Assembly (NCBI GenBank): GCA_001662655.1
Contig: KV460231.1
From: Pseudogymnoascus verrucosus
Lineage: Eukaryota
Reading direction: 5' to 3' (one strand)
DNA: 64,000 nucleotides
In this document: positions 1 through 12,531 of the stretch, in pieces
How the letters are laid out: the number at the start of each line of letters is the position of its first letter
Numbering within the stretch: position 1 is the stretch's first letter
Position numbers and translations under genes: made by a program
Notes under the pieces: generated by a model
The model's database searches: none
What the model saw: the letters and a program-made list of their open reading frames with translations, nothing else
Told to the model about the DNA's origin: nothing

Positions 1-229
1 ACAGTTCTACATGGAGTGTGCCCAGATCAACGTCACGGGTGGCAGCGGTGCTTCAACTCCAGAGACAGTTGCCCTCCCAGGTGCTTATTCGGTAAGTCTA
101 GACTGTTCTATTCTCTTTGCGGACTATTTCTAACTCTGATAGGCTACTGATCCTGGCATTCTCATCAATATTTACCAGAGCCCAATGCCGGCGTACACCA
201 TTCCTGGCCCTTCCGTATTCACCTGCTAA
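1..229 (+). CDS. AA9 lytic polysaccharide monooxygenase, 3' part (5' end outside window)
   Basis: Frame from nt 2 reads [30 protein letters not shown], then GT-AG intron 92-142, then [32 protein letters not shown] (TAA 227-229). QFYxxCAQ and PGAY..DPGI...IPGP are AA9 C-terminal hallmarks. Confidence 0.93.
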
Positions 230-1184
230 ATAGTCTTTTGGGAGGTTTGGATGGTTCTGGTTAATAGCAGATTAGATCAACTAGGGACAGGATTATGAGA
301 GGGATATGATGGATATATGATGGGTACATGGGGATATAGAGCATGGGCAACTACTGTACATAGTCCAAAGAAGCATTTTGTATTTATTGTATATAAATCT
401 ACCAGCGCCAATATTATTTATTTGCCTATTATAATCTGCCTGTAACTTGATGCCTACATTATATGCTAAGTTTACTATCCTTACTTAACCTATTGGGCTT
501 GTGGTTGTTATATAAACCCGATGCCGCCAGTATCACTTGCTTTCTTGTTCCTTCGCCGGCTTTATGGAAAATTGTCGTACATGCAGTCATCTGCCAAATC
601 CACTTTGCGAGCAATGTGTTCTGTGCATTGATAGAGCATGCGTTACGACGTTCATAGAGCACTATGCATGGAGATACGTGAAGCGGCGGCCATTCATTGC
701 CACATGACTCTGTCCCTTCAACTAGTCTACTACTCTCAGCTTCACCCACGACAGTGCAGTGGTAATCGAGAAGCCGGCAAGTTTTATCACAAGCATGAAA
801 TACGGCCAGCTCATACAAGGTTGTTCAAGCAGGCTGATATGAGAGTTAGCTTTGACCAGCCACGAATAGCCGACAAAACTGTGTGAGAATGGGAGCAATA
901 TGCCCGCAACCGGAGATTTCAACAACACAAAACCTTATTAAATGGGTGAGTTTCATAATATCATTTGGCTTTGACCCTATTATAATACTACGAATGATTT
1001 AGAATAGACTGTTTCTTTGGTTCTCAAGTTGGTAGTCAAAATATTCATGATATGTACGTATGTTGAAAAAATCTATATACAGCGATAAATTACATACCAC
1101 AGATCGCACCAATTCTCTATATCACTTCTCCTCATATCTCGCTCTACGTCTCTATAAAAGAGCCGTTCTCTCAGCTCCCTTCTC

Positions 1185-1912
1185 TTAACCCTGCCAGACC
1201 TCAGGGCCCGGAACAGTGTAAGAGGTGAAGTCAGAGTAAATGTTGGCGGTGTATCCAGGGTCAGTTTCCGCGAACGCCCCTGGAATCGCTACCAATGGGG
1301 CTGGGCTTCCACTGCCACCACCAGTGACCGAGATCTGCGCGCAGGAGATGTAAAACTGCGGGACTCCCCCGGGCCATGGGTTGTGGATGGCGAGCTGCTG
1401 GATGCGAAGGAGGTACTCTCCGTCCGGCACGCTTGCGGGGATCGTGACGCCGTAGGTCAACCCGAGGTCCCAGGTTGCAGCGCCGCCGCTGAAGGTAGGG
1501 CCGATGTCCTTGATCTTGAACCAGACATCGCCGGAGCCGTCGAATGACTCGGCGGTGGTGGGGGCTTTGGCCATGTAAAATGACACGGGGCCTTGGTGAT
1601 AGACGGCGACGTCGGCAGTAAATTCGACTGACGAGCCAGCCGTTACGGCTATGGTTGCACCGGCTCCAGTCTCTCCGCCGACATTGCAGCGGAGGTCATT
1701 TGAGGCGAGGTCAGTTACTGGAGAGTTGTAGTTTGTGTTCTCGCGAATATATTCGTACGCGGCAGACTGGGTGCCATCGTAGGTCAGATATTGGAAGATG
1801 TCTGAATTCATATAAGCATTTATTAGATTTGTACGAGCACTTCAAACTTACAATGGGCGGAAGCCTGTTGGGCAAGGACAGACAGCCCGAGAGCAGCGAC
1901 AGAGAGCTTCAT
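1185..1912 (-). CDS. AA9 lytic polysaccharide monooxygenase (secreted, no CBM)
   Basis: ATG at 1912; signal peptide [19 protein letters not shown] followed by His1 (H-Y split by intron 1851-1802, giving HYIFQ). Motifs [33 protein letters not shown]. Confidence 0.95.
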
Positions 1913-3527
1913 ACTTGCGGTGGAGGCGATATATGCGTATTGGGATGACCTTGAGAAAGAATACCAAACACTGGTCGCCTTTTATAACTTATACGGGCGC
2001 AAGAATTGGAGGATCGGCTTATTCTGGAGTCTGAAGTGACCAATATAGCCAGACATGCACGCAGACAACTATGATCCTTATGCCATGGAAGCGCCAGTTG
2101 CGGCATCATGTCACCAAGTTTTGTATATATAAATGGCTATGATGACGACGATCTTGTTCCAAGCAGATTAACAACAGGAAATAGTACCGAAATGGGTATC
2201 CATCTTTGACCGTAGAACAGATCGACAGCATCCGTATGGCCGTGTTTGATAGTCTCTGTTCTACATAGAGTAGATCCAGCGAGCGATCTTGAAACTAGGT
2301 GGATCCCTGGACACGAAAATTTAACAGTGCGAACAACCCAAGTACTTGGTGCATCTATCCATGCCATGAAAGTATCGACAGCGACAGGCAGGAGACGTCA
2401 TTGTTTACATTTCCTCTGTTCCACTTCAAATGAAAGAGCATGAGATATATGAAATTCCACGCAAGCAGGAGATTCGCAATCACGCAATGTGTGGCATGGA
2501 AAGGCATAGTATATGGGATAGAGGTAAGAAGAGTCCAACCTACTGATTTGCGAGTGCCGGTCGGTCGGTACTACAAACTCCGTCAAGCCTCAGCGAAAGG
2601 CAACTTCATGACCGATGATCAGGAAGATCTATTCCATTCCCGGGCACAGCGAGGGTATTATGTGTCGGTGGGGGCAGTTGTTCGACGATATCCCTACATC
2701 TGTGGGAATTCTGGGGAATGAAAGGATCCCAGTGTCCCCCGCTCTCGAGACCACACCACTGCCGTGATTTGTGACAGGGACGACAGGGGTCTGCATGATG
2801 AATGTAACCGGTGGCGCTAACGGACCTGCTTCCCGCACTCTAAATGAACCACAACCCCTCTCTTCTAGCTCTATAGTACTCCCCATAGTACGCATATTCG
2901 AGTACTATCCGGATAAAAAATAGCCAATTGATTTTATCCGCATATAGTAGTATGTATTGTTGTATCATTGCGTCGTTTTATCGTTTTCTGCTCCTCCTAA
3001 GCGATTCTCAACATCGTCTTGGGGGTTTTATTCCGTGTTTGTGCAGATGAATGCGAACTGGTCTGGACTCTCACTCGACTTCTTGGCATCCACCCCGTGA
3101 CTTTCATCTTTCAGCAAGCTTCGGCGGAACTATACAGTTAGGTGCTGTGTGGCTTGTGCCTTGTGTCTATTGTTCGTGCATCCACTTCTGTGTGGCAAGG
3201 GGCTGGGCGTCCTGTAGCTCATAGCGCGCCCTCTTTCTATTTTACTGGTAACCCGATTCCACCACTTGCGACGGTGCCGTCGTTGCATCGCGCACCTCCC
3301 CGCAAATACAAACACCTGGTTACTGCTGTCGCCCAGGGCATCACATGTAGGACTAGGTTCCCGTTTCATTAACGGGATCCATGGTACTCGTTCCAGGACA
3401 GCCGCCCCATGTGACTTTTCCTGCCGCGTTTATCACATCACTAGGTTTGTGGAGCACTGCTCATCAGGTGCCTACCTGTTCTCCATATTGATTCTCTAAT
3501 ATTTCTCTGTTGCTCTCAATATAACCT

Positions 3528-3541
3528 CGGCTGGCCGGCCG
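3528..3541. promoter_or_regulatory. Candidate CGG-N8-CCG (ClrB/CLR-2-type Zn2Cys6) site in the divergent AA9/GH6 intergenic region
   Basis: CGG CTGGCCGG CCG lies between the divergent cellulase genes. It is a short motif and could occur by chance. Confidence 0.3.
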
Positions 3542-4329
3542 AACAAGCGGTGACATCCGAACAATAAGCTTTTGCTTGCTTATATATTATTTGTAGAAAT
3601 ATTATTAACCTCTATTTAAAAGCTTCAACCGACGATTTCTACCGCATATGGAAGTATCAATTATCCCAGAATATACTGTTCTGTATTTTATTGGCTGTTA
3701 GTTTGCGTAGAGAGTTATTCTGTGGACTAAGTGGTCCATCCCGTTGGATTTCCTCATCTTATTGGCATTTTACCCCTCGCGCTGGCCATGCCCTTGCACA
3801 TATCCCCCCGCACGATACCCCCAATTATTTACCTAGACTACTGTCGCTGGCTTCTCCTCTCATAGCTGGTAGCCACTCAGATGAGACTTACATGGTGGTG
3901 TACTCCATACCGAACGTAATACATGGTGCTCTATAGGACTTCATCTTTCCCGTCCCGGAAGCGGCGTCCGATCATAAAGCGCGCATCTTGATTTACCCCA
4001 GGTGTATCACTGCCATGAACGCCTTCTCGACGCTCGATATCGCCTCGTGATGATGGCCCTGAGCTAGAAGCATTCTAGAACACGCCTCTTTCTAGCTCAA
4101 ACCAGGGATGCCCGGCTCAACTTCTCATAACGGCATGTCTTTCTTCCCAGCCAAGCTCAGACTCTTTGGAAGACGGCTGCTTTTTCCGCAATCTATTGCT
4201 GGCGGACTCTTTATCTCTTAATCTGTTTGGACTTCTAATTTCCCGATATTTCTATAAGAGTGGCCGTCCTGGAGAATCTACAACGACATCAGCAAAGTCA
4301 CCAGCATTTTAGAATCTTTAACACTCACA

Positions 4330-5820
4330 ATGGCTTTGAAGAACGTCCTTCTAGCGGCTGCGGCTCTCGCACCTACAGTCCTTGCTCAAGGTGGTGCCTG
4401 GGCGCAATGTAAGCTCTGATCCGACCTCTAGTTGTATTCTTTCTGACCAGATCAGGCGGTGGAAATGGCTGGACTGGTGCGACCACCTGTGTGTCCGGAT
4501 ATACCTGCACCTACTCCAATGATTGGTACTCGCAATGTTTGCCTGGTTCAGGTGGAGGAAACCCAACCACCACCGCAAAACCTACCACCACCGCTCCGAC
4601 TACCACCTCAGCGGGTACTGGTACCACTTCTCCTCCAACCGTGGGCAATCCATTCGCGAATGTCCAGCACTACGCCAACCCGTACTACTCGTCTGAAATC
4701 TACACTTCCGCCATTCCATCTCTGACTGGCACTGCGGCTGTCAAGGCCAGCGCCGTCGCTAAGGTCGGAACATTCGTCTGGCTGTGAGTTGCAACGCAGA
4801 AAATCTAGGGCTTGTTACTAACTTGACAAAGCGATACTGCTGCCAAGGTCCCAACTATGGACACATACCTCACCAACATTGAGGCCTTAAACGCCGCTGG
4901 TGCATCCCCGCCAGTTATTGGAACCTTCGTCGTTTATGATCTCCCAGACCGTGACTGTGCTGCCCTCGCTTCCAACGGCGAATACTCCATCGCCAACAAT
5001 GGCGCTGCCAACTACAAAGCCTACATCGATGCGATCAGGGCAATCCTCGTCAAGCACAGCAAGACCAAGGTCGTTCTTGTCGTTGGTCAGTACCCCCTTA
5101 ATGCCCCGCACTATTACTCTTTCTGATTTGCTGCCAGAGCCCGATTCTCTTGCCAACCTAGTGACCAACCTAAGCGTTGCGAAGTGCGCCAATGCGGCGG
5201 CCACGTACAAGTCCCTCACCGTCTACGCAATGCAGCAGCTGAACCTTCCCAATGTCTCCATGTACCTCGATGCCGGCCATGGTGGTTGGCTAGGCTGGGC
5301 CGCCAACATCGGCCCTGCAGCTGACATGTTCGGCAGCATATACAGCTCCGCAGGCAAGCCAGCTGCCGTCCGTGGTCTCGCTACCAACGTCGCGAACTAC
5401 AACGCGTGGAGTATCTCGACCTGCCCATCGTACACCAGCGGTGACTCGAACTGCGACGAGAAGCGCTACATCAACGCCATCGCTCCTCTCCTGACCAACG
5501 CTGGATTCCCAGCACACTTCATCATTGACACCTCGCGCAACGGAGTTCAGCCTACTGCACAGAATGCCTGGGGCGATTGGTGCAACCTGAAGGGGACGGG
5601 CTTCGGTGTCCGCCCAACAACCAACACGGGTGACGCGCTTGCCGATGCCTTCGTGTGGATCAAGCCTGGTGGAGAGTGTGATGGCACTTCTGACTCTTCA
5701 GCTGTGAGATACGATGCTCACTGCGGGCTGGATGATGCTCTTAAGCCTGCGCCAGAGGCTGGACAGTGGTTCCAGGCATACTTCGCACAACTGCTCAACA
5801 ATGCCAACCCTTCTTTCTAA
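4330..5820 (+). CDS. cbh2: Cellobiohydrolase II, CBM1-linker-GH6
   Basis: Signal peptide [22 protein letters not shown]1 [33 protein letters not shown]; Thr/Pro linker; GH6 motifs [55 protein letters not shown]. Introns 4409-4455, 4784-4831, 5086-5137. Confidence 0.97.
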
Positions 5821-6514
5821 AGTGGGAGAATTGAGTAAAGGCGAACGTCTTGCGAGGTGTTGTCTTAGTTTTAACTGAGCCTCAACTCGTATGCGATGGG
5901 GTGGTTGTAAATTAGCCTGAACATGAGTGGTTGGTGGGGATAAAATGGAGAGCTGCTTGCTTTTTTAGCGAGGCACAGCACTGTTGCTATTCTCATTTTC
6001 CGTTCATTTGTGCAGGATCGGCAGTCTGTATATAGAAACCAAAATGGAAAATTGCAGGTTCCACATTTCAGTTCCAGGCTGTTGGTGACAATTTACACTT
6101 ATATTTCGGATCGACACAGGCCAGGTTCATGCATTGTGAACATATGTAGATCGATTCATAATTCTGACATCTATCGAGACACCAGATGCATGGTACACGA
6201 TAAGACTACGTTGAGAAGAGAAAAACCCAAGAAAGTTTGCATCTTTTACCAGAATAAATAAGCATGGTGTACAGCGCTGCCATCTCCCGGCTGTCGTCAA
6301 GATCCATATTGAGAAGTTCGTCAATAAAGTAGAAAACGATAAATATGACCTATTTCACATGGCAGAATAGAACACCAAAAAGTGTAAATACAGTTATTGT
6401 CAATATTTACAGTGATAACGAGCGGCAATATCTACAATAGTAACGACGGACAGACATTCCCAGATATCTACAACCAATGCTGCCTCATCCAGCCTAAATT
6501 TAGCGTTCTAACCT

Positions 6515-7315
6515 CTAACCACTCCAGACTGCTGGGCCTGGGATCTTGTAGGAGGTTGGGATGGGCCAGTAGATGCCAATCAGAATTCCTGGGTCTGTCG
6601 CCGAGTATCCACCAGGCAGCTTGATGGTAGGACCTGGGCTGCCCGAGCCAGAACCAGAAATCTTCAGCTGAGCGCAGGAGATATAGAACTGGGCACCATC
6701 GGTAGTACTAGCAGAGTGCAGCGCGATGTGCTCGATGCGAAGAAGATATTCTCCCGCGGCTGCTGAGGTCAGTCATGCGATCTTGCTACCCAGTCAAAGG
6801 TGCTGAGAAAGGGGGTCTTACGAGTGCTGCTGGGGATCTTGAATGTGTACTGAGATATGTCTGATGCTGGCCAAGTAATCGCCGATGTAGAGATCGTTGC
6901 GCCCACCTCAGCGATCTTGAACCAGGCACCAGAGCCATCATAGGAGGCGGCTGTGGACGGCGCCTTAGAAAGATAGACGGTAATGGGGCCGGGGTGGAAG
7001 ATCGCCTGGTCTAGCGCAAAGCCAACAGTGGCACCGGCAGCTACAGATGCAGTGCCGGTGGAAGCACCGGAAGCGAGTCCTCCGGCGTTGCAGCGGATGT
7101 CGTTGGAGCTGACGGAGGTGACTGGAGAGTTTGCGTTGGTATTTTGGCGGACATACTGATAGGGGGAAGTTGCCGCGCCGTTCACAATCAGAGAAGTCCA
7201 GCGGTCTGGGGATGTTAGAATCGACACAATGAAGGGGAGGCGGAGGCATACAATGCGCAGAGACGACATCCGTAAAGGCGATGGCGCCCGCGAGAACGGG
7301 AAGGATAACTCTCAT
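6515..7315 (-). CDS. AA9 lytic polysaccharide monooxygenase (secreted, no CBM)
   Basis: Signal peptide [20 protein letters not shown] followed by His1 (HYRWTS after intron 7251-7206). Motifs DIRCN, HPGP, WFKI; intron 6821-6760; [20 protein letters not shown]; ends [13 protein letters not shown]. Confidence 0.95.
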
Positions 7316-9256
7316 AGCTGATAAATTTCCGAAGAATGCACTTTTGATTTAACTACAACTTGTGGGATAATGGGAAAACTTCAACTTCTACTCCTACTGG
7401 CAAGGACTAACGGGGCTTATAAGAAGAAAGAAACACAGCGTCACGGGGCCTCCAAGAGGTAGATGGGATTTGCCAAGAACGAGTTTCACCTAGGCGCCCT
7501 AACTCTAACTGCCGGAATAATTGCACCATAGCCAGAGGAAACTAACCAAGTGCCTGTAAGGTAAATCATACAGAGGATAGCCACATGGCACAGTCTGGTA
7601 CAGATTAATGAGATTCGGGTGATGTGGGCCGCAAGAATTGCGGGATATGGCGAACCAGCGGAGAGAACTTGGGTTGAAGTGGGAGTCGCCGGGCCGCAAG
7701 CCTAGAAACTGTTGACATGATATAATAAATAAAGGAACGGATGTCTTGGAGACTTATATAAAGTTATGGTTGGTTAAACTGGCAGAAAGAACTGAAAAAC
7801 TGAATCTAAAATTGCGAAGTGCAATCAACAAATTCGGATTCAATAAATGAGAAAACTGCCAACGAGATGTTGGGCGTACAATTTGGATTTGAAGATACGA
7901 GGCATTCTACAAATACAACAGCGCAGTACTCGCTATCCCAAAGAAGGAAATAATGATTCTGACGAACCTGTGGTAAGGATTTATACATACCCATGTGTGT
8001 TATGGGTAAAGTGAGTGACGGAGAGTGGCCTACTATAATAAACGAGGACGCGCCAGCCGAATGACCACAATTCGCCCCCATGATAATATCCCGAAGCCCC
8101 AGCCTATCGCCACGTTTCACTACACTCTCCCCGCAGTATATCCAGCAATATTATTCCCTTGGTATTTGTTTAATCCCGGTACCTAGGAGGGGCAAAGAAT
8201 ATACAGAGTAAAGCTCAATATATTCAGCATTGAGTTGTCGGCTGCATGGCGGGGGTCGACGTCGAGATTACTATATTGAATTGCTCATCCGGCTGTTACA
8301 CTCTATGTCTTGATCATACGACCTGCAGTAATATACTCGCACGCAATGTGGGACAGGGAGCTATGAGGGTTTGAGGCCTGGAACTTGGGCAATGGCTGTA
8401 CCCCAGCGTGGATGCTGGTCGAGTCGCCTGGTTTGAGTGTTATGGACCACAGAATGTACTGGATGGGCGTGGCAATAGAGTTGGCGTCAAAATACTTCGT
8501 CTGGCTCTGTTGATTCTACTGGAGGTGAAAGGATATTGACGATGGCCTCTATTGACTCCAGTGGCTACAGTTCCTTCTGACCCAGCACAAGCTCATATGA
8601 TGGACAATTCTAGTCGTCGTCAATATATGTGTCATTGACATACAGTTGGATCCTGCCAACAATGTCGGTGCCAAGTCAATTTCTACCTGGGAACCTTCCA
8701 GACCCATCCAGCTGTAAGTCTCATACTTTAACTTTTCATCTCCGAGCCGTTTCCAGCAGAGAAACTGTAAGGTTCGCTTCCATTCTTCATATATTCTTCC
8801 CCCTCCTTTCCAATATTGCATTCTGAATCACTTAACGCGGCGATATCACGACCTTAATACTACTTCGTTTGCAAGCATCTCAATTCTCCCTCATATGGTC
8901 TCTCATACAGGCTCAATGCTTCGGATCATGGCCGGAATATTGTCTTCAGGGAGAATTATATTCTCATTTGGCCTGCATGAGTTGCCTGTCAACAAGGACT
9001 TTCCGAACCTGTCATTAATTGTAGAGTATTATGAGTTAGAATTACACCAAACGTCTCTTCCTCGCGACTTTGATATAAAGTTCTGATTTCCTCTGCCCCC
9101 AAACTGTTTATTTCTTCTCTGCAACAAGCTTTCATTCTCCACTTCTTTTAAGATCTTACAACAGGATATTAGCTCGACGCCTATACGCAACTCAAGATTT
9201 GGGTGGTCTGTCCTATATCCACGGATCTACAAACGCGTTACTCTCCCTACATAACC

Positions 9257-9770
9257 ATGAAGAGCTTCCTCATCTCAGCGCTTCTCGCCGCCACCGCTGC
9301 GGCTTTGCCCCAGGGGCTCGGCCAAATCACCCGCATAGTGATCACCGATGCCCAACCAACAGCCATCGCGGTGCCACGAAATGCAGAGGCCCAGCACCTT
9401 GGGCCCGTCAGCCGAACGGTGATCTACGATTCCCAGCCTACTCGTATCTCAGTGCCGCGAGATGATGTTCTGGATAACGCAAAGCGCCAAACGATCGGCG
9501 GCATATGTATGACCCCCTATTCCAGATACCGTCTCTTCATATGTCACTTTGAAGCTTCCCTCGCTGACTATAACAGGCTCCAGCAACGACTCGTGTGCGC
9601 CGGGATTCTCATGCACCTCCCTCGGTAGCGGTTACTCGCTGTGCCTCCCTAATATCCTAGTACCATCAGTGGTGCCAATAACGGCATCACGTACGGACAT
9701 TGGAGATGTTCCAGTAAGCTCTGGAGGCGCCATTCAGCCAACCAATGTTGCTATTGCCGGCCGTAAGTAG
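9257..9770 (+). CDS. Small secreted protein with internal peptide repeats and a degenerate CBM1-like 4-Cys module
   Basis: Signal peptide MKSFLISALLAATAAA; two ~24-aa repeats ending in PR; KR site; intron 9507-9576 (GTATGA..GCTGAC..CAG) joins to give QTIGGICSSNDSCAPGFSCTSLGSGYSLCLP; stop at 9768-9770. Confidence 0.75.
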
Positions 9771-10280
9771 GTACGTCGAGTTTATGGAAAGCAGTCACTT
9801 CGGAAAAGGGGGTATTACTGGGTGGTTTGTAGTCGTCGAAGTGGATAGTATGATCAGAGTGGCGGTGACCTGGATGGAAAGATCGAGTGTTTGATGCGTT
9901 GATGAAAAAAAATTGTACTTCTTCTACTGGTGGAATTTAAGGACTTGTATCATGCTGAAAATTTTCTGTGATATTTGGGTCGTTCACACATGTCCGTGAC
10001 AGTTGTCCTTGACTGTTATTACCATAGAGAAATATACAGACTCCTGGCTCCTGACCCCAGAAAGTCCATAACTCGTAGGACGGACAGGCCTGATCGCAGA
10101 AACCTAGATGACGGATGATCGCATCCCGCCCTGGCATATGCAAGTATCAATCAACACGAAGCAAATGTAACATTGGCATGGAGGCTTCTATTCTCGGCTG
10201 TATCCTCACAACTAGGTATTATACATCTAGCCCAAGCGTCTCCCAGCTCGCCAAGTTCATCCCCTCCCCAGCACATGCAT

Positions 10281-12058
10281 CTAATCCTCATCCCAGTTAG
10301 CATTAGGCGCTGGCGGCTTCGGTCCACCAGCCTGTCTCGCGACGATGATCTGGTCGACCGAGAGGACGGTGCGTGCTGCCTCGGTGGCAAGCCTGATGGC
10401 CCAAGACTTGGAGACCAACAGGTCAAGGATGCCGGCGTCCTTGGCATCAAGGATTCCGGTTCCATCATCGTTCTATAGATTTCATTAGTATATTTCGCTG
10501 GTAGATTGGGAAGGAGATTCAGATTGTTCACGTACCTCAATATCAACACCGGTAGACCAGTCCTCCTTCTTGTGGTGGGCAGTGTATAACCTGCTCAGCA
10601 CCTCGGTGGCATCCAATCCAGCGCTCTCAGCTAGTGTCCTTGGGATTACCTCGAACGCCTCGGCATACTTCTTAATGGCGTATTGTGGCAGGCCAGGGGT
10701 GGTCTCGCCGTGTGCCATTATCCGCTCAACAAGCTCCGTCTCTGTGGCTCCAGCTCCTGGGACTAACCTCGGATCCTTTGTGATGGCCTTGACGACATTG
10801 ACTCCATCATCAACGGCACGCTCAATATCATCGAGGTGGTTCATGGTGGCTCCGCGCAGAACAATAGTGGCCGTCCTTGTCGAGTCATTCTCTTGTCTGA
10901 AAACGGTCACACGGTCACCACCAATCTCCAAGGTCTCGACAATGTCGATGCTTCCCATCTCGTCCGGCATAGGGGCGCCAAGTCTTGCTAATGGGGTAGC
11001 ACCAACAACTCTGCACACTCTTCTGAGCTCAAACTTGGACAAAATGCGGATGACCAGGATGCCGAAGCGGTTGAGGTAGTGCATCGCCAGCTCACCGACA
11101 GTGGAGCCGGCAATGACAACGCGAAGACCCGAATCGTAAAGCTCCTTGATGGCAACCTCCAGCTGGCTCTCCTCTCCCGTGGTAAAGTCCAACATTTCCT
11201 TTGCATTGTGTAGTAGAACCGTGCCCTTGGTCTCGGTCTGGCTGGTGTCGATCGGGCAAGAGAAGACTCCGACCTTGGCCCTGACGGCCTTCTTCACGGA
11301 TCCGTCTGGCTCCCTCCCAAAGACCATACCCTTGACAACTCTGCTCTGCTCCATGCTTCCTCCCATAATCTTGACAACTCTGACGGTATCAACGTTGAAT
11401 TGCGTTGGGTTCTTTGGCAGAACAGCCAACACAGCTTCAGCGATAAGGTCCGCCAAGAAGTCCTCACTGCCACATTGTTTGCTCGCAACGACCGTCCTGA
11501 TGGCCTTGCTGAGCTCCTTCTGTGACCGCATATCCTCCACCTTATCCACGACCAACTCGTCGAGCACCTCCAGTGCGTATTTTTGTGCTCTCTCGTAGCC
11601 CTGGACAACATCCGATGTCTTCAACCCCATCCTCAACAGATCCTCAGCTTTCTTTAGCAGCTCTCCGGCAAGCACGATGACCAAGTTCGTGGCGTCTCCC
11701 ATCTCGGCTTCCTGTTGCTGGGAAGCCATGACAATAAGCTTTGCGGCTGGGTGGACAACATCGAGTTCGCGGAGGATGGTGGCAGCGTCGGAGGTCAGAA
11801 TCATCTTCTGCAGATGGTTGATGACAATCTTGTTGCGGCCGTAGGGACCAAGGGATGTCTGGACGGTGGAGGAGATTGCGCGACAGGCATCGATATTGCG
11901 AAGAACAGCTCCATCTTCAGAGTCGTAGCTGGATAGGAGTTAGCACAAATAATTTAGGCGTGTGGTGACGCTGCGATGAGACGGAATAGAAGGACATACG
12001 AGTTATAGCCCTGCTTGAACAAGTTGGCGTTCGGGGCATTGGGGATATTGAGCGACAT
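10281..12058 (-). CDS. CCT8: T-complex protein 1 subunit theta
   Basis: Starts MSLNIPNAPNANLFKQGYN; chaperonin motifs SLGPYGRNK, TSDAATIL, GDATN, PGAGATE; two introns (~12000-11929 and 10535-10473); C-terminus RQAGGPKPPAPNANWDED. Confidence 0.96.
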
Positions 12059-12531
12059 GATGGGTGGTTGAGAGGGGTGTGTCGGGGAGGTGAGGTGGTC
12101 TCGAGCTCTTTTTGGAGATATCGCGTCTTGAGCTTCGAACAAAAATCGTTAAACGCGATTTCGGCCTGATCGCCAAGGCCAAAATGTTAATTGGCGGGAA
12201 CAACCCCCATGGAAGTGTTGCCCCACCACATCGTATGCCGCATCCATGCCCCACATAGGGGAACGTTGAGGACTTCATCTTCAAGTTAAACAGACATCCA
12301 TTGTATAATCAACATATAGAAACTGCCAAAAACAACGTTGAGCTAAGTGCATTCAAGTTAAAGCAGACTTTTTAATTGTCCTGTAACTTTAAATACAAGA
12401 CGGACCGTACTGAGGACAACAAAGTACAGCAATTTACCCCGCCTCCTCCACAGTAAGGAAGCTTCAAGAACTCACTCCTATATAGCCATTCGAACAGTGA
12501 ACCCCTCATAACAACTTAAAGCTCCAATACA

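Follow-up and report, generated by a model that had tools for sequence, protein, structure and literature searches.

A probable six-gene cellulose-degradation cluster in Pseudogymnoascus verrucosus and its conserved AA9/GH6 core in Leotiomycetes

Why do genes for the attack on cellulose stand side by side at some places in fungal genomes? The question is raised by the left end of a 64,000-nucleotide stretch of contig KV460231.1 of Pseudogymnoascus verrucosus (GenBank assembly GCA_001662655.1), called here the window, where three genes of the AA9 family of lytic polysaccharide monooxygenases (LPMOs), a predicted GH6 cellobiohydrolase gene and a gene for a small secreted cysteine protein follow each other within 10 kb. 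We put at roughly 70% the probability that most of a six-gene cluster lies in this end, one with which saprotrophic Pseudogymnoascus attacks crystalline cellulose both oxidatively and hydrolytically, by the mechanism proposed below. The sixth gene, for a cellobiose dehydrogenase (CDH), lies to the left of the window.

The gene content was read from the list of stop-to-stop open reading frames (ORFs) together with Pfam and tblastn matches, and exon models were built from window coordinates; every intron runs from GT to AG and has 46-70 nt. Positions 1-9770 hold the 3' end of AA9-C, then AA9-A, GH6, AA9-B and the small-protein gene, with no other gene between these five (Table 1). From about 10.3 kb rightwards the ORFs with Pfam matches are of housekeeping types (CCT-theta, methyltransferase, DEAD helicase, YEATS, SYF2, Iwr1, GST, desaturase, SMC, RIO kinase, SNARE and GH47). 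The original prediction, made from the letters of the window, had described five consecutive predicted secreted genes within 10 kb with no housekeeping gene among them, one AA9 gene and the GH6 gene being divergent from a shared 2.4-kb region. Both statements stand: the start codons of AA9-A and GH6 are 2417 bp apart, head-to-head. The secretion call comes from N-terminal hydrophobic leaders read by eye, not from a predictor. The count of three AA9 LPMOs in the original prediction is right for loci, since the 64-kb window has exactly three and all other tblastn matches have E>0.7, but the third, AA9-C, is only a fragment inside the window. Protein searches identify the genus of the locus as Pseudogymnoascus, and three models are letter-identical to database proteins: GH6 to P0018 (V499_08186 / VE01_06715), AA9-A to P0275 (V501_06924 / VE01_06714) and the small protein to P0308 (V499_08188 / VE01_06717). 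A tRNA scan of positions 1-10500 found none.

What lies beyond the left edge? For P. verrucosus this can be read from rows of supplementary files 3, 4, 20 and 22 of PMC5750222 (Palmer et al. 2018). The published end coordinates of all listed cluster genes equal the window coordinate plus 124000, and the AA9-C stop at 229 is the end of VE01_06713; from this uniform offset the window therefore appears to begin inside VE01_06713. Immediately left of it the published annotation places the rest of AA9-C and then CDH, with 1732 bp between the annotated ends of these two genes, which agrees with the original suggestion that the cluster may extend to the left. The full order is CDH(-), AA9-C(+), AA9-A(-), GH6(+), AA9-B(-) and small protein(+), six genes in about 14.8 kb. 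They form three head-to-head pairs, with tail-to-tail spacers of 955 and 694 bp between one pair and the next. The consecutive locus tags leave no room for an annotated gene in the AA9-A/GH6 spacer. The identity of CDH in the window's own genome is that of the published VE01_06712 row. In the metagenome locus L001, sister to Pseudogymnoascus in the GH6 tree, the whole plan CDH(-), AA9(+), AA9(-), GH6(+), AA9(-), CBM1 gene(+) is present, and the CDH orthologue there gives CDH-cyt at E=4.9e-23 and GMC_oxred_N at E=1e-23.

If a functional cluster is taken as at least three adjacent genes of unrelated families for one process, the locus brings together CDH, AA9, GH6 and a CBM1-derived gene. Could such a neighbourhood arise by random placement? 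By our own arithmetic, a GH6 gene with AA9 on both sides is expected by chance roughly 1e-5 times per genome, so that this explanation is negligible; the inputs were the 21 AA9 and 3 GH6 genes of P. verrucosus and its locus tags up to at least 9,706 in the table rows of PMC5750222.

Table 1. Genes, spacers and one conserved block of the cluster and its borders. Positions are those of the window; locus tags and published lengths in amino acids (aa) are from rows of PMC5750222.
Feature	Locus tag, published length	Position	Strand	Details
Beta-lactamase-like	VE01_06711, 413 aa		-
Cellobiose dehydrogenase (AA3;AA8)	VE01_06712, 816 aa		-
AA9-C, AA9 LPMO, 3' end	VE01_06713, AA9, 239 aa	exons 2-91, 143-229	+	last 58 codons; Pfam AA9 on 2-91, E=6.4e-8, tblastn
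AA9-C/AA9-A tail-to-tail spacer		230..1184	.	955 bp, convergent genes
AA9-A, single-domain AA9 LPMO	VE01_06714, AA9, 225 aa	1185..1912	-	225 aa; one intron 1851-1802; Pfam AA9 E=1.6e-47
AA9-A/GH6 head-to-head upstream region		1913..4329	.	2417 bp between start codons
Conserved 46-bp non-coding block		2804..2849	.	blastn vs sister lineage L001; CCG-N10-CGG inside
GH6, predicted cellobiohydrolase II	VE01_06715, GH6, 447 aa	4330..5820	+	447 aa; introns 4409-4455, 4784-4831, 5086-5137; Pfam CBM_1 + Glyco_hydro_6
GH6/AA9-B tail-to-tail spacer		5821..6514	.	694 bp, convergent genes
AA9-B, single-domain AA9 LPMO	VE01_06716, AA9, 230 aa	6515..7315	-	231 aa; introns 7251-7206, 6821-6763; Pfam AA9 on both large exons
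AA9-B/small gene head-to-head upstream region		7316..9256	.	1941 bp between start codons
Small secreted Cys protein gene	VE01_06717, hypothetical, 147 aa	9257..9770	+	147 aa; one intron 9507-9576
CCT chaperonin theta subunit, right boundary	VE01_06718, 547 aa	10280..12058	-	Pfam Cpn60_TCP1 E=5.9e-136 on 10488-11939; span from VE01_06718 coordinates, offset +124000

Is this order peculiar to one genome? AA9-A and GH6 are consecutive, by locus tags or GenBank accessions, in 15 Pseudogymnoascus genomes, to which the orthogroup table adds VE03; the small gene comes two tags past GH6 in eight genomes and three tags past it in one. According to rows of the orthogroup table of PMC5750222, VE01, VE00 and VF21 have the complete run from CDH to the small gene, and so does VE02, where one additional tag comes in. 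In VE03 the run lacks a small-gene member, and VE04 shows the first three genes. The M0 ratios of nonsynonymous to synonymous substitution rates (dN/dS) given in the same source are 0.098 for CDH, 0.062 for AA9-C, 0.063 for AA9-A, 0.112 for AA9-B, 0.332 for the small gene and 0.014 for CCT.

Outside the genus, an alignment of 13 GH6 sequences was used to scan metagenomes and gave 80 loci, 36 of them at least 4.5 kb long. An AA9 gene lies beside GH6 in nine of these 36, with seven distinct sequences among them (L001=L007, L044, L045=L046, L047, L060, L062, L074). The order and strands AA9-C-like(+), AA9-A-like(-), GH6(+) are those of the window in L001, L044, L045, L047, L062 and L074; L060 shows AA9-A-like(-) and GH6(+), and the upstream DNA of L046 is too short. 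Downstream of GH6, AA9-B follows on the minus strand in L001, and a gene of AA9-B type follows on the plus strand in L044, L045 and L046. All nine AA9-bearing loci fall inside the Leotiomycete clade of the GH6 tree, which has a support of 97 in the SH-like approximate likelihood-ratio test (SH-aLRT), and 26 of the 27 long loci without AA9 neighbours fall outside it. One locus outside the clade, L038, carries a 51-aa AA9-like segment where its contig ends, some 7.3 kb downstream of GH6.

The same adjacency is found in named species. In all seven Helotiales species looked up (Calycina marina, Amylocarpus encephaloides, Phlyctema vagabunda, Venustampulla echinocandica, Mollisia scopiformis, Coleophoma cylindrospora and C. 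crateriformis), GH6 and a short AA9-A-type protein of 221-226 aa have consecutive accessions on the same contig. Pairs of GH6 and AA9 that are not adjacent were seen in Sclerotinia, Botrytis elliptica and Xylogone, where the match is a CBM1-bearing AA9 paralogue, and also in the Dothideomycete Paraphaeosphaeria and, by locus tag, in three lichen-fungus genomes. As a side observation, the 834-aa protein P0358 of Botrytis fragariae is named both cellobiohydrolase II and endoglucanase EG-II, and looks like a fusion of two neighbours of the sort described below for L062 and L074, where GH6 is followed by further cellulase genes.

Content and flanks were compared by Pfam on 124 ORFs of L001, L044, L045, L062 and L074. 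The four Helotiales loci are flanked by a purine-cytosine permease on the left and SRAP on the right; in the window's genome CDH and beta-lactamase lie to the left and CCT to the right. Downstream of GH6 there is an AA9 gene in L044 and L045, GH131 and GH5 in L062, and GH5 in L074 (these cellulase genes occupy 12601-15784 of L062 and 14670-15128 of L074). The three-gene core AA9-C/AA9-A/GH6 is the same throughout, with variable accessory genes and with flanks unlike those in the window's genome. A core kept amid differing flanks is as expected if selection holds it together. In the loci and genomes compared, the arrangement is kept across species beyond its flanks. The earlier suggestion of co-inheritance is thus borne out in at least 15 Pseudogymnoascus genomes and in L001, and for the core across Leotiomycetes; the co-regulation suggested along with it is putative.

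If three of six genes belong to one family, then we can ask: is the locus only a local expansion of AA9 beside GH6, and not an assembled functional unit? All three genes pass the curated Pfam AA9 cut-off of 27.8 bits (AA9-A 162.5 bits, the AA9-B exons 86.6 and 89.7, the AA9-C fragment 33.2). In AA9-A the leader ends in ASA, His1 follows at residue 20, H89 lies in HQGP and Q169-F-Y171 is present; in AA9-B the leader ends in VSA, with His1 at residue 21, H92 in HPGP and Q174-F-Y176. For AA9-C the QFY alone is visible within the window, and His1 is seen in the L001 orthologue. The AA9 proteins accordingly carry the predicted histidine brace and Q-x-Y motif, with the cleavage site read by eye. AA9-A has no CBM1, and a search of the ORFs of 230-1184 for a CBM1 relic downstream of it showed nothing, so that this idea was rejected. 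The second intron of AA9-B has a tandem acceptor CAGCAG at 6759-6763 that stays in frame either way, giving 231 or 230 aa; the published VE01_06716, whose coordinates match, uses the 230-aa form.

The idea of a tandem expansion draws on the three AA9 genes among six, on an intron position directly after His1 shared by AA9-A and AA9-B, on the same nearest structures for these two proteins, and on AA9 tandem arrays known in phlebioid basidiomycetes (PMC6540522, as excerpted). It has to face an identity of only 49% between AA9-A and AA9-B (106 of 216 aligned positions) and the result of the AA9 tree. There, position C is a single clade (SH-aLRT 100), AA9-B falls together with the downstream genes of L001, L044 and L045 (SH-aLRT 88), and the Helotiales genes of position A group with the named GH6-adjacent proteins (SH-aLRT 94). 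The AA9-B orthologue at the same position in L001 is 74-76% identical, and the best match of the 58-aa AA9-C fragment is always a position-C gene (E=1e-14 to 1e-27). The three AA9 genes thus appear to be deep paralogues whose clades follow gene position, as the original prediction had supposed in denying that they are recent tandem copies. Since the three positions are separate clades, each with orthologues from several lineages, any duplication must be older than the Leotiomycete radiation. The other members, CDH, GH6 and the CBM1-derived gene, belong to unrelated families. Rows of PMC5750222 also list in P. verrucosus a second convergent pair of AA9-C type and AA9-A type, VE01_09706/09705, both members with CBM1 and adjoining GH43, and the same second pair in five other Pseudogymnoascus species. 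The occurrence of both genes together suggests duplication of a two-gene unit and not of single genes. Taken together, we consider a mere family expansion highly improbable.

The nearest structures point to a division of labour among the LPMOs. For position C, judged by the full-length L001 orthologue, they are 5foh, 5tkf, 4eir and 4d7u, which we take to be C4-oxidising Neurospora LPMOs. For AA9-A and AA9-B they are 8b7p, 4b5q, 4qi8, 3eii and 7exk, of which 4b5q, 4qi8 and 3eii are presumably C1-oxidising enzymes. As a lead, AA9-C is predicted to be of C4 type and AA9-A and AA9-B of C1 type.

The GH6 protein has a leader, CBM1, a Thr/Pro linker and the GH6 domain. Pfam Glyco_hydro_6 matches with 290 and 80 bits, and the motifs DRDC at 175, EPDS at 221 and GECDG at 399 lie in columns that are invariant in the 13 aligned GH6 proteins. 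It matches structures of cellobiohydrolase II from end to end with 500-557 bits (E=1e-148 to 4e-166) vs 238 bits (3e-69) for the endoglucanase 1dys; these are whole-sequence scores. The N-terminal CBM1 is recognised by Pfam CBM_1 on exon 2 alone (E=2.8e-10), the spliced model has the full C-x10-C-x5-C-x9-C pattern, and P0018 carries a precomputed PF00734.

How would these enzymes work together? In the mechanism that we propose, the LPMOs would cut chains on the crystal surface, AA9-C as the C4-type enzyme and AA9-A and AA9-B as those of C1 type. The non-reducing end left by a C1 cut would be native, and it is at such ends that a GH6 cellobiohydrolase enters. Cellobiose released by GH6 would be oxidised by CDH, which would return the electrons to the LPMO copper. 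The linkage may have been retained since the pairs share regulatory DNA and could be inherited and switched on as one unit. Related behaviour has been described elsewhere: reducing-end cellobiohydrolases are impeded by C1-oxidising LPMOs (excerpt of PMC8047454), and A. nidulans secretes AA9 proteins together with CDH on cellulose (excerpt of PMC9241910).

The shared regulatory DNA is also where a rival explanation is to be weighed. It says that the linkage is passive, an old local arrangement not yet broken up, of no regulatory or selective meaning, with each gene controlled singly in trans. A scan of eight orthologous AA9-A/GH6 spacers, with motifs for CLR-2, ClrB, CLR-1, XlnR, XLR-1, CreA, HAP and ACE1, gave results that sit well with it and weigh against our functional reading. 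The ClrB-type CGGN8CCG was seen 9 times vs about 3 expected over the eight spacers, and the CLR-2-type CGGN11CCG 7 times vs about 3, both a weak excess over mononucleotide shuffles. The XlnR-type GGCTAR was not enriched over these spacers, and words of 7-10 nt common to seven orthologous spacers were not above Markov shuffles. Several other points weigh in the same direction. In the Helotiales loci the permease abuts AA9-C, and CDH is not part of the unit there; in L054, a Leotiomycete locus placed as the sister of Hyaloscypha in the GH6 tree, the 5.6 kb upstream of GH6 contain no AA9. In the AA9 tree the window AA9-A and the position-A gene of L001 stand in a neighbouring unresolved group with the CBM1-bearing Pseudogymnoascus paralogue, outside the Helotiales clade of position A. 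Both trees are quick searches, the GH6 tree by maximum likelihood with 44 named fungal proteins and the AA9 tree with 50 rows, and the C4 and C1 types are assigned by nearest solved structures. Consecutive accessions tell of annotated neighbours and not of orientation. Contigs of public runs give splicing, neither expression levels nor conditions; AA9-B and the spacers have no contig cover in the runs X1, X4 and X8, which is no evidence of silence, and the literature searched contained nothing on the expression of the cluster genes in Pseudogymnoascus. Passive linkage can moreover appeal to the same families being unlinked in other classes (Paraphaeosphaeria and the lichen-fungus genomes), to the 26 non-Leotiomycete GH6 loci without the arrangement, and to accessory content that varies between AA9-B, GH131, GH5 and CDH.

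Rapid shuffling of local gene order is known from filamentous ascomycetes, and this counts against passive linkage. So does the order and orientation of the core, which is kept in seven distinct metagenome lineages with differing flanks, and the GH6/AA9-A adjacency of the seven Helotiales species. The AA9-A/GH6 spacer also stays long in all eight loci, at about 1.8-2.9 kb in the seven Leotiomycete loci other than the window. One block of 46 bp survives in it between two genera: positions 2804-2849 and L001 8297-8343, mid-spacer, are 91% identical. Apart from the close pair L044/L045, this is the only cross-lineage blastn match between spacers. The window has one copy of the block, a match at 3 mismatches or fewer turns up in 8 of 100 shuffles, and the block was not found in the other Leotiomycete loci. 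The CCG-N10-CGG layout inside it is typical of Zn2Cys6 factor sites, and we regard the block as a candidate binding site, nothing more. The AA9-B/small-gene spacer gave one marginal 72-nt match to L001 just upstream of the CBM1-repeat gene (E=0.003). On balance we think passive linkage unlikely, and prefer the reading of a cluster retained for its function.

Does the small gene belong to this cluster? The original prediction called its product a CBM1-like microprotein. A derivation from CBM1 holds, but the product is a 147-aa precursor whose likeness is partial and which fails Pfam CBM_1. The protein consists of a leader, two copies of a unit of about 27 aa, Lys76-Arg77, a module of four cysteines (Cys84, 90, 96, 106) and a conserved 39-aa tail. 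A word-indexed search gave a family of 17 proteins (P0001-P0017), and all eight with an organism name are from Pseudogymnoascus. The pro-region unit occurs in two or three copies by strain, and the family alignment shows little or no variation in Lys76-Arg77-Gln78, in the four cysteines and in large parts of the pro-region and tail. The protein is probably cleaved at Lys-Arg and so released from its pro-region. An AlphaFold2 model from a 10-sequence alignment had a mean predicted local distance difference test score of 42 (about 61-66 for residues 82-112) and was too poor for use. Eight of the 17 database models (P0001, P0002, P0004, P0006, P0009, P0011, P0014, P0015) read through the intron of the gene, and such models lose or shift the cysteine module.

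Pfam CBM_1 gave no match up to E=10 in five of five family members, and none up to E=0.001 on the exons of the gene. The cysteine spacing is C-x5-C-x5-C-x9-C vs C-x10-C-x5-C-x9-C in CBM1, so that the CBM1 pattern is absent, and other residues stand in place of the canonical first Cys and of the GGxGW/Y loop. Y103 is the sole face aromatic kept, in nine of ten aligned members (P0012 has W-Y); the face positions are those that we assume from the CBM1 of Cel7A. The evidence for descent is of another kind. A home-made hidden Markov model from 64 CBM1 segments matches ten of ten members at the same place with 5-14 bits, and hhalign of the family against these segments gives a probability of 85% (E=5.8e-6) over 24 columns, residues 85-108. 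The matched part is the last 24 of 37 CBM1 positions, with C-x5-C-x9-C and the Y-S-x-C-L-P end. This gene and the CBM1 of GH6 both have a phase-1 intron in the codon of the first Cys. A phmmer (HMMER) pass with exon 2 over 1.84e9 representative proteins gave five matches, two of them family members and one a 368-aa protein carrying Pfam CBM_1 (E=1.6e-4); UniRef names P0016 and P0308 'CBM1 domain-containing protein'. In L001 the gene at the same position has CBM_1 at E=5e-17 and aligns with the small protein by BLASTP at E=3e-5, with the Cys module and linker motifs matched. That gene (L001 14640-15545, P0316) encodes a secreted protein of three tandem modules, each a CBM1 with a linker of about 45 aa ending in Gly/Asp-Arg-Gln; it has no catalytic domain, and the ORF may run on past an intron. 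From these comparisons the small protein appears to be a descendant of CBM1, though it fails Pfam CBM_1.

The small gene may stand outside the cellulolytic unit, as an independent secreted cysteine-knot peptide for defence, signalling or wall binding that is merely a neighbour. With one of three face aromatics retained by our assumed positions, the silence of Pfam CBM_1, a family confined to Pseudogymnoascus, and a dN/dS of 0.33 against 0.06-0.11 for the enzymes in the rows of PMC5750222, this is a serious contender, if somewhat short of even odds. The three true CBM1 modules of the positional gene in L001, the upstream region shared head-to-head with AA9-B, and the phase-1 intron that splits the codon for the first Cys, a position shared with the CBM1 of GH6, argue for membership.

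The fate of the locus in the bat white-nose pathogen P. destructans also bears on this point, and it favours an independent small gene. PMC5750222 gives 179 carbohydrate-active enzymes (CAZymes) in P. destructans vs a mean of 493 in six relatives, no GH6 vs 2-3, and four AA9 genes vs 14-21 (21 in P. verrucosus). No VC83 gene is listed in the CDH, AA9-C, AA9-A or AA9-B orthogroups. The small gene, VC83_06980, whose product has a predicted signal peptide, still stands next to CCT. The two lie between stretches without annotated genes of 11.3 kb (left of the small gene) and 13.3 kb. Past the 11.3-kb stretch, two of three annotated genes (VC83_06977, VC83_06978) have orthologues far off by tag, VE01_03443/03444, and repeats make up 38% of the genome. 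P. destructans has lost all five cluster enzymes and kept the small gene. The main text of PMC5750222 has no occurrence of AA9 or GH6.

These lines can be joined in a wider picture, which we offer tentatively and hold to be doubtful as a whole. The locus would be an ancient, selected Leotiomycete 'oxidative cellulolysis cassette', whose core would be convergent genes for a C4-type and a C1-type LPMO, set head-to-head to a non-reducing-end cellobiohydrolase. The LPMO pair would act as a two-gene unit, given its second copy elsewhere in the genome. CDH and the CBM1-repeat gene would have been gained in the Pseudogymnoascus lineage, and three bidirectional promoter pairs would switch as one. The small protein would be a Kex2-released cystine-knot peptide with a cellulose-independent role, and such a role would explain its survival in P. 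destructans.

Is such a cluster new? The full-text literature searched, which did not extend to subscription journals, gave no described AA9/GH6/CDH cluster in ascomycetes. A compact class-wide cellulolytic cluster lies in annotated public genomes, and its arrangement is of a kind already known. The original prediction goes too far in stating that dispersal is the usual condition of fungal cellulase genes, since AA9 arrays and CAZyme clusters are in print (excerpt of PMC6540522). According to that excerpt, phlebioid white-rot basidiomycetes have arrays of 2-7 AA9 genes with up to four non-CAZyme genes between them, and the authors suggested concerted regulation and found clustering of cellulase genes less evident. 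The likeness lies in several adjacent AA9 genes; here, in contrast, the AA9 genes appear to be deep paralogues of differing predicted regioselectivity, interleaved with GH6 and joined by CDH. T. reesei has no CDH (excerpt of PMC13647598).

There are three further systems for comparison. Non-random CAZyme gene clusters were reportedly described in Trichoderma reesei by Martinez and colleagues in 2008 and by Druzhinina and colleagues in 2016. They too have secreted wall-enzyme genes of different families together in a filamentous ascomycete, with co-expression suggested, but they are said to be large and loose, between syntenic blocks, whereas here six genes in about 14.8 kb have a fixed order. 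Neurospora crassa has a dispersed cellulolytic regulon under CLR-1/CLR-2 that includes cdh-1, gh6-2 and LPMO genes, unlinked and coordinated in trans. The set is the same (CDH, AA9 enzymes of C1 and C4 type, a GH6 cellobiohydrolase II), and so is the expected biochemical interplay, but in Pseudogymnoascus the genes are physically joined, with sites of the CGGN11CCG and CGGN8CCG kinds weakly over-represented. Bacterial polysaccharide-utilisation loci and cellulase operons are co-transcribed and include transporters and sensors. They resemble the present cluster in encoding complementary enzymes for one polymer side by side; unlike in operons, each gene here has its own promoter side. Annotation and Pfam gave no transporter or regulator gene between CDH and CCT, and the next gene left of CDH is the beta-lactamase-like one. 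As for the small protein, it is like CBM1 in the last 24 of 37 positions and in the first-Cys-codon intron, and unlike it in the altered first loop, in the single face aromatic, and in standing alone behind a repeat-containing pro-region with Lys-Arg.

The usual picture of a fungal cellulase system is one of unlinked genes under trans coordination, and a compact cluster found throughout a class is a natural test of whether being linked and sharing bidirectional promoters contributes to enzyme synergy in eukaryotes. It would also be a ready-made minimal enzyme set for biomass, with an electron donor, LPMOs of predicted C4 and C1 type and the type of cellobiohydrolase that would benefit from C1 cuts. 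Soil Pseudogymnoascus has the cluster and the white-nose pathogen has lost it, which makes it a clean genomic marker for the change from a saprotrophic to an animal-pathogenic life. The CBM1-derived peptide that survives may be a case of a carbohydrate-binding module put to another use.

Transcripts support several of the gene models. All three GH6 introns are spliced out as modelled in RNA-type contigs of three of four runs (X1, X4 and X8, from three studies). The intron 9507-9576 of the small gene is confirmed in one run, X1, where the loose end of the exon-2 contig is formed by the last bases of exon 1, and the CCT gene is spliced in X1 contigs as well. An extra 3' exon of the small gene, starting from GTAAGT at 9763, was considered and rejected, as the X1 contig is unspliced to 9829. 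The contig cover in X4 and X8 is GH6 only, plus a scrap at 10.3 kb in X8. The GH6 message spans 4288-6065 in X1, X4 and X8, one run being recorded as a root metatranscriptome; its coding pieces in the runs mostly have 0-6 mismatches, and the pieces of the 3' end 10-11. The shares of the runs listed for the window are small, 0.05-0.35. The fourth run, X11, is DNA-like and derives from a close relative that is about 93-97% identical, as estimated from mismatch counts; it covers positions 1-12500 colinearly in all 30 bins.

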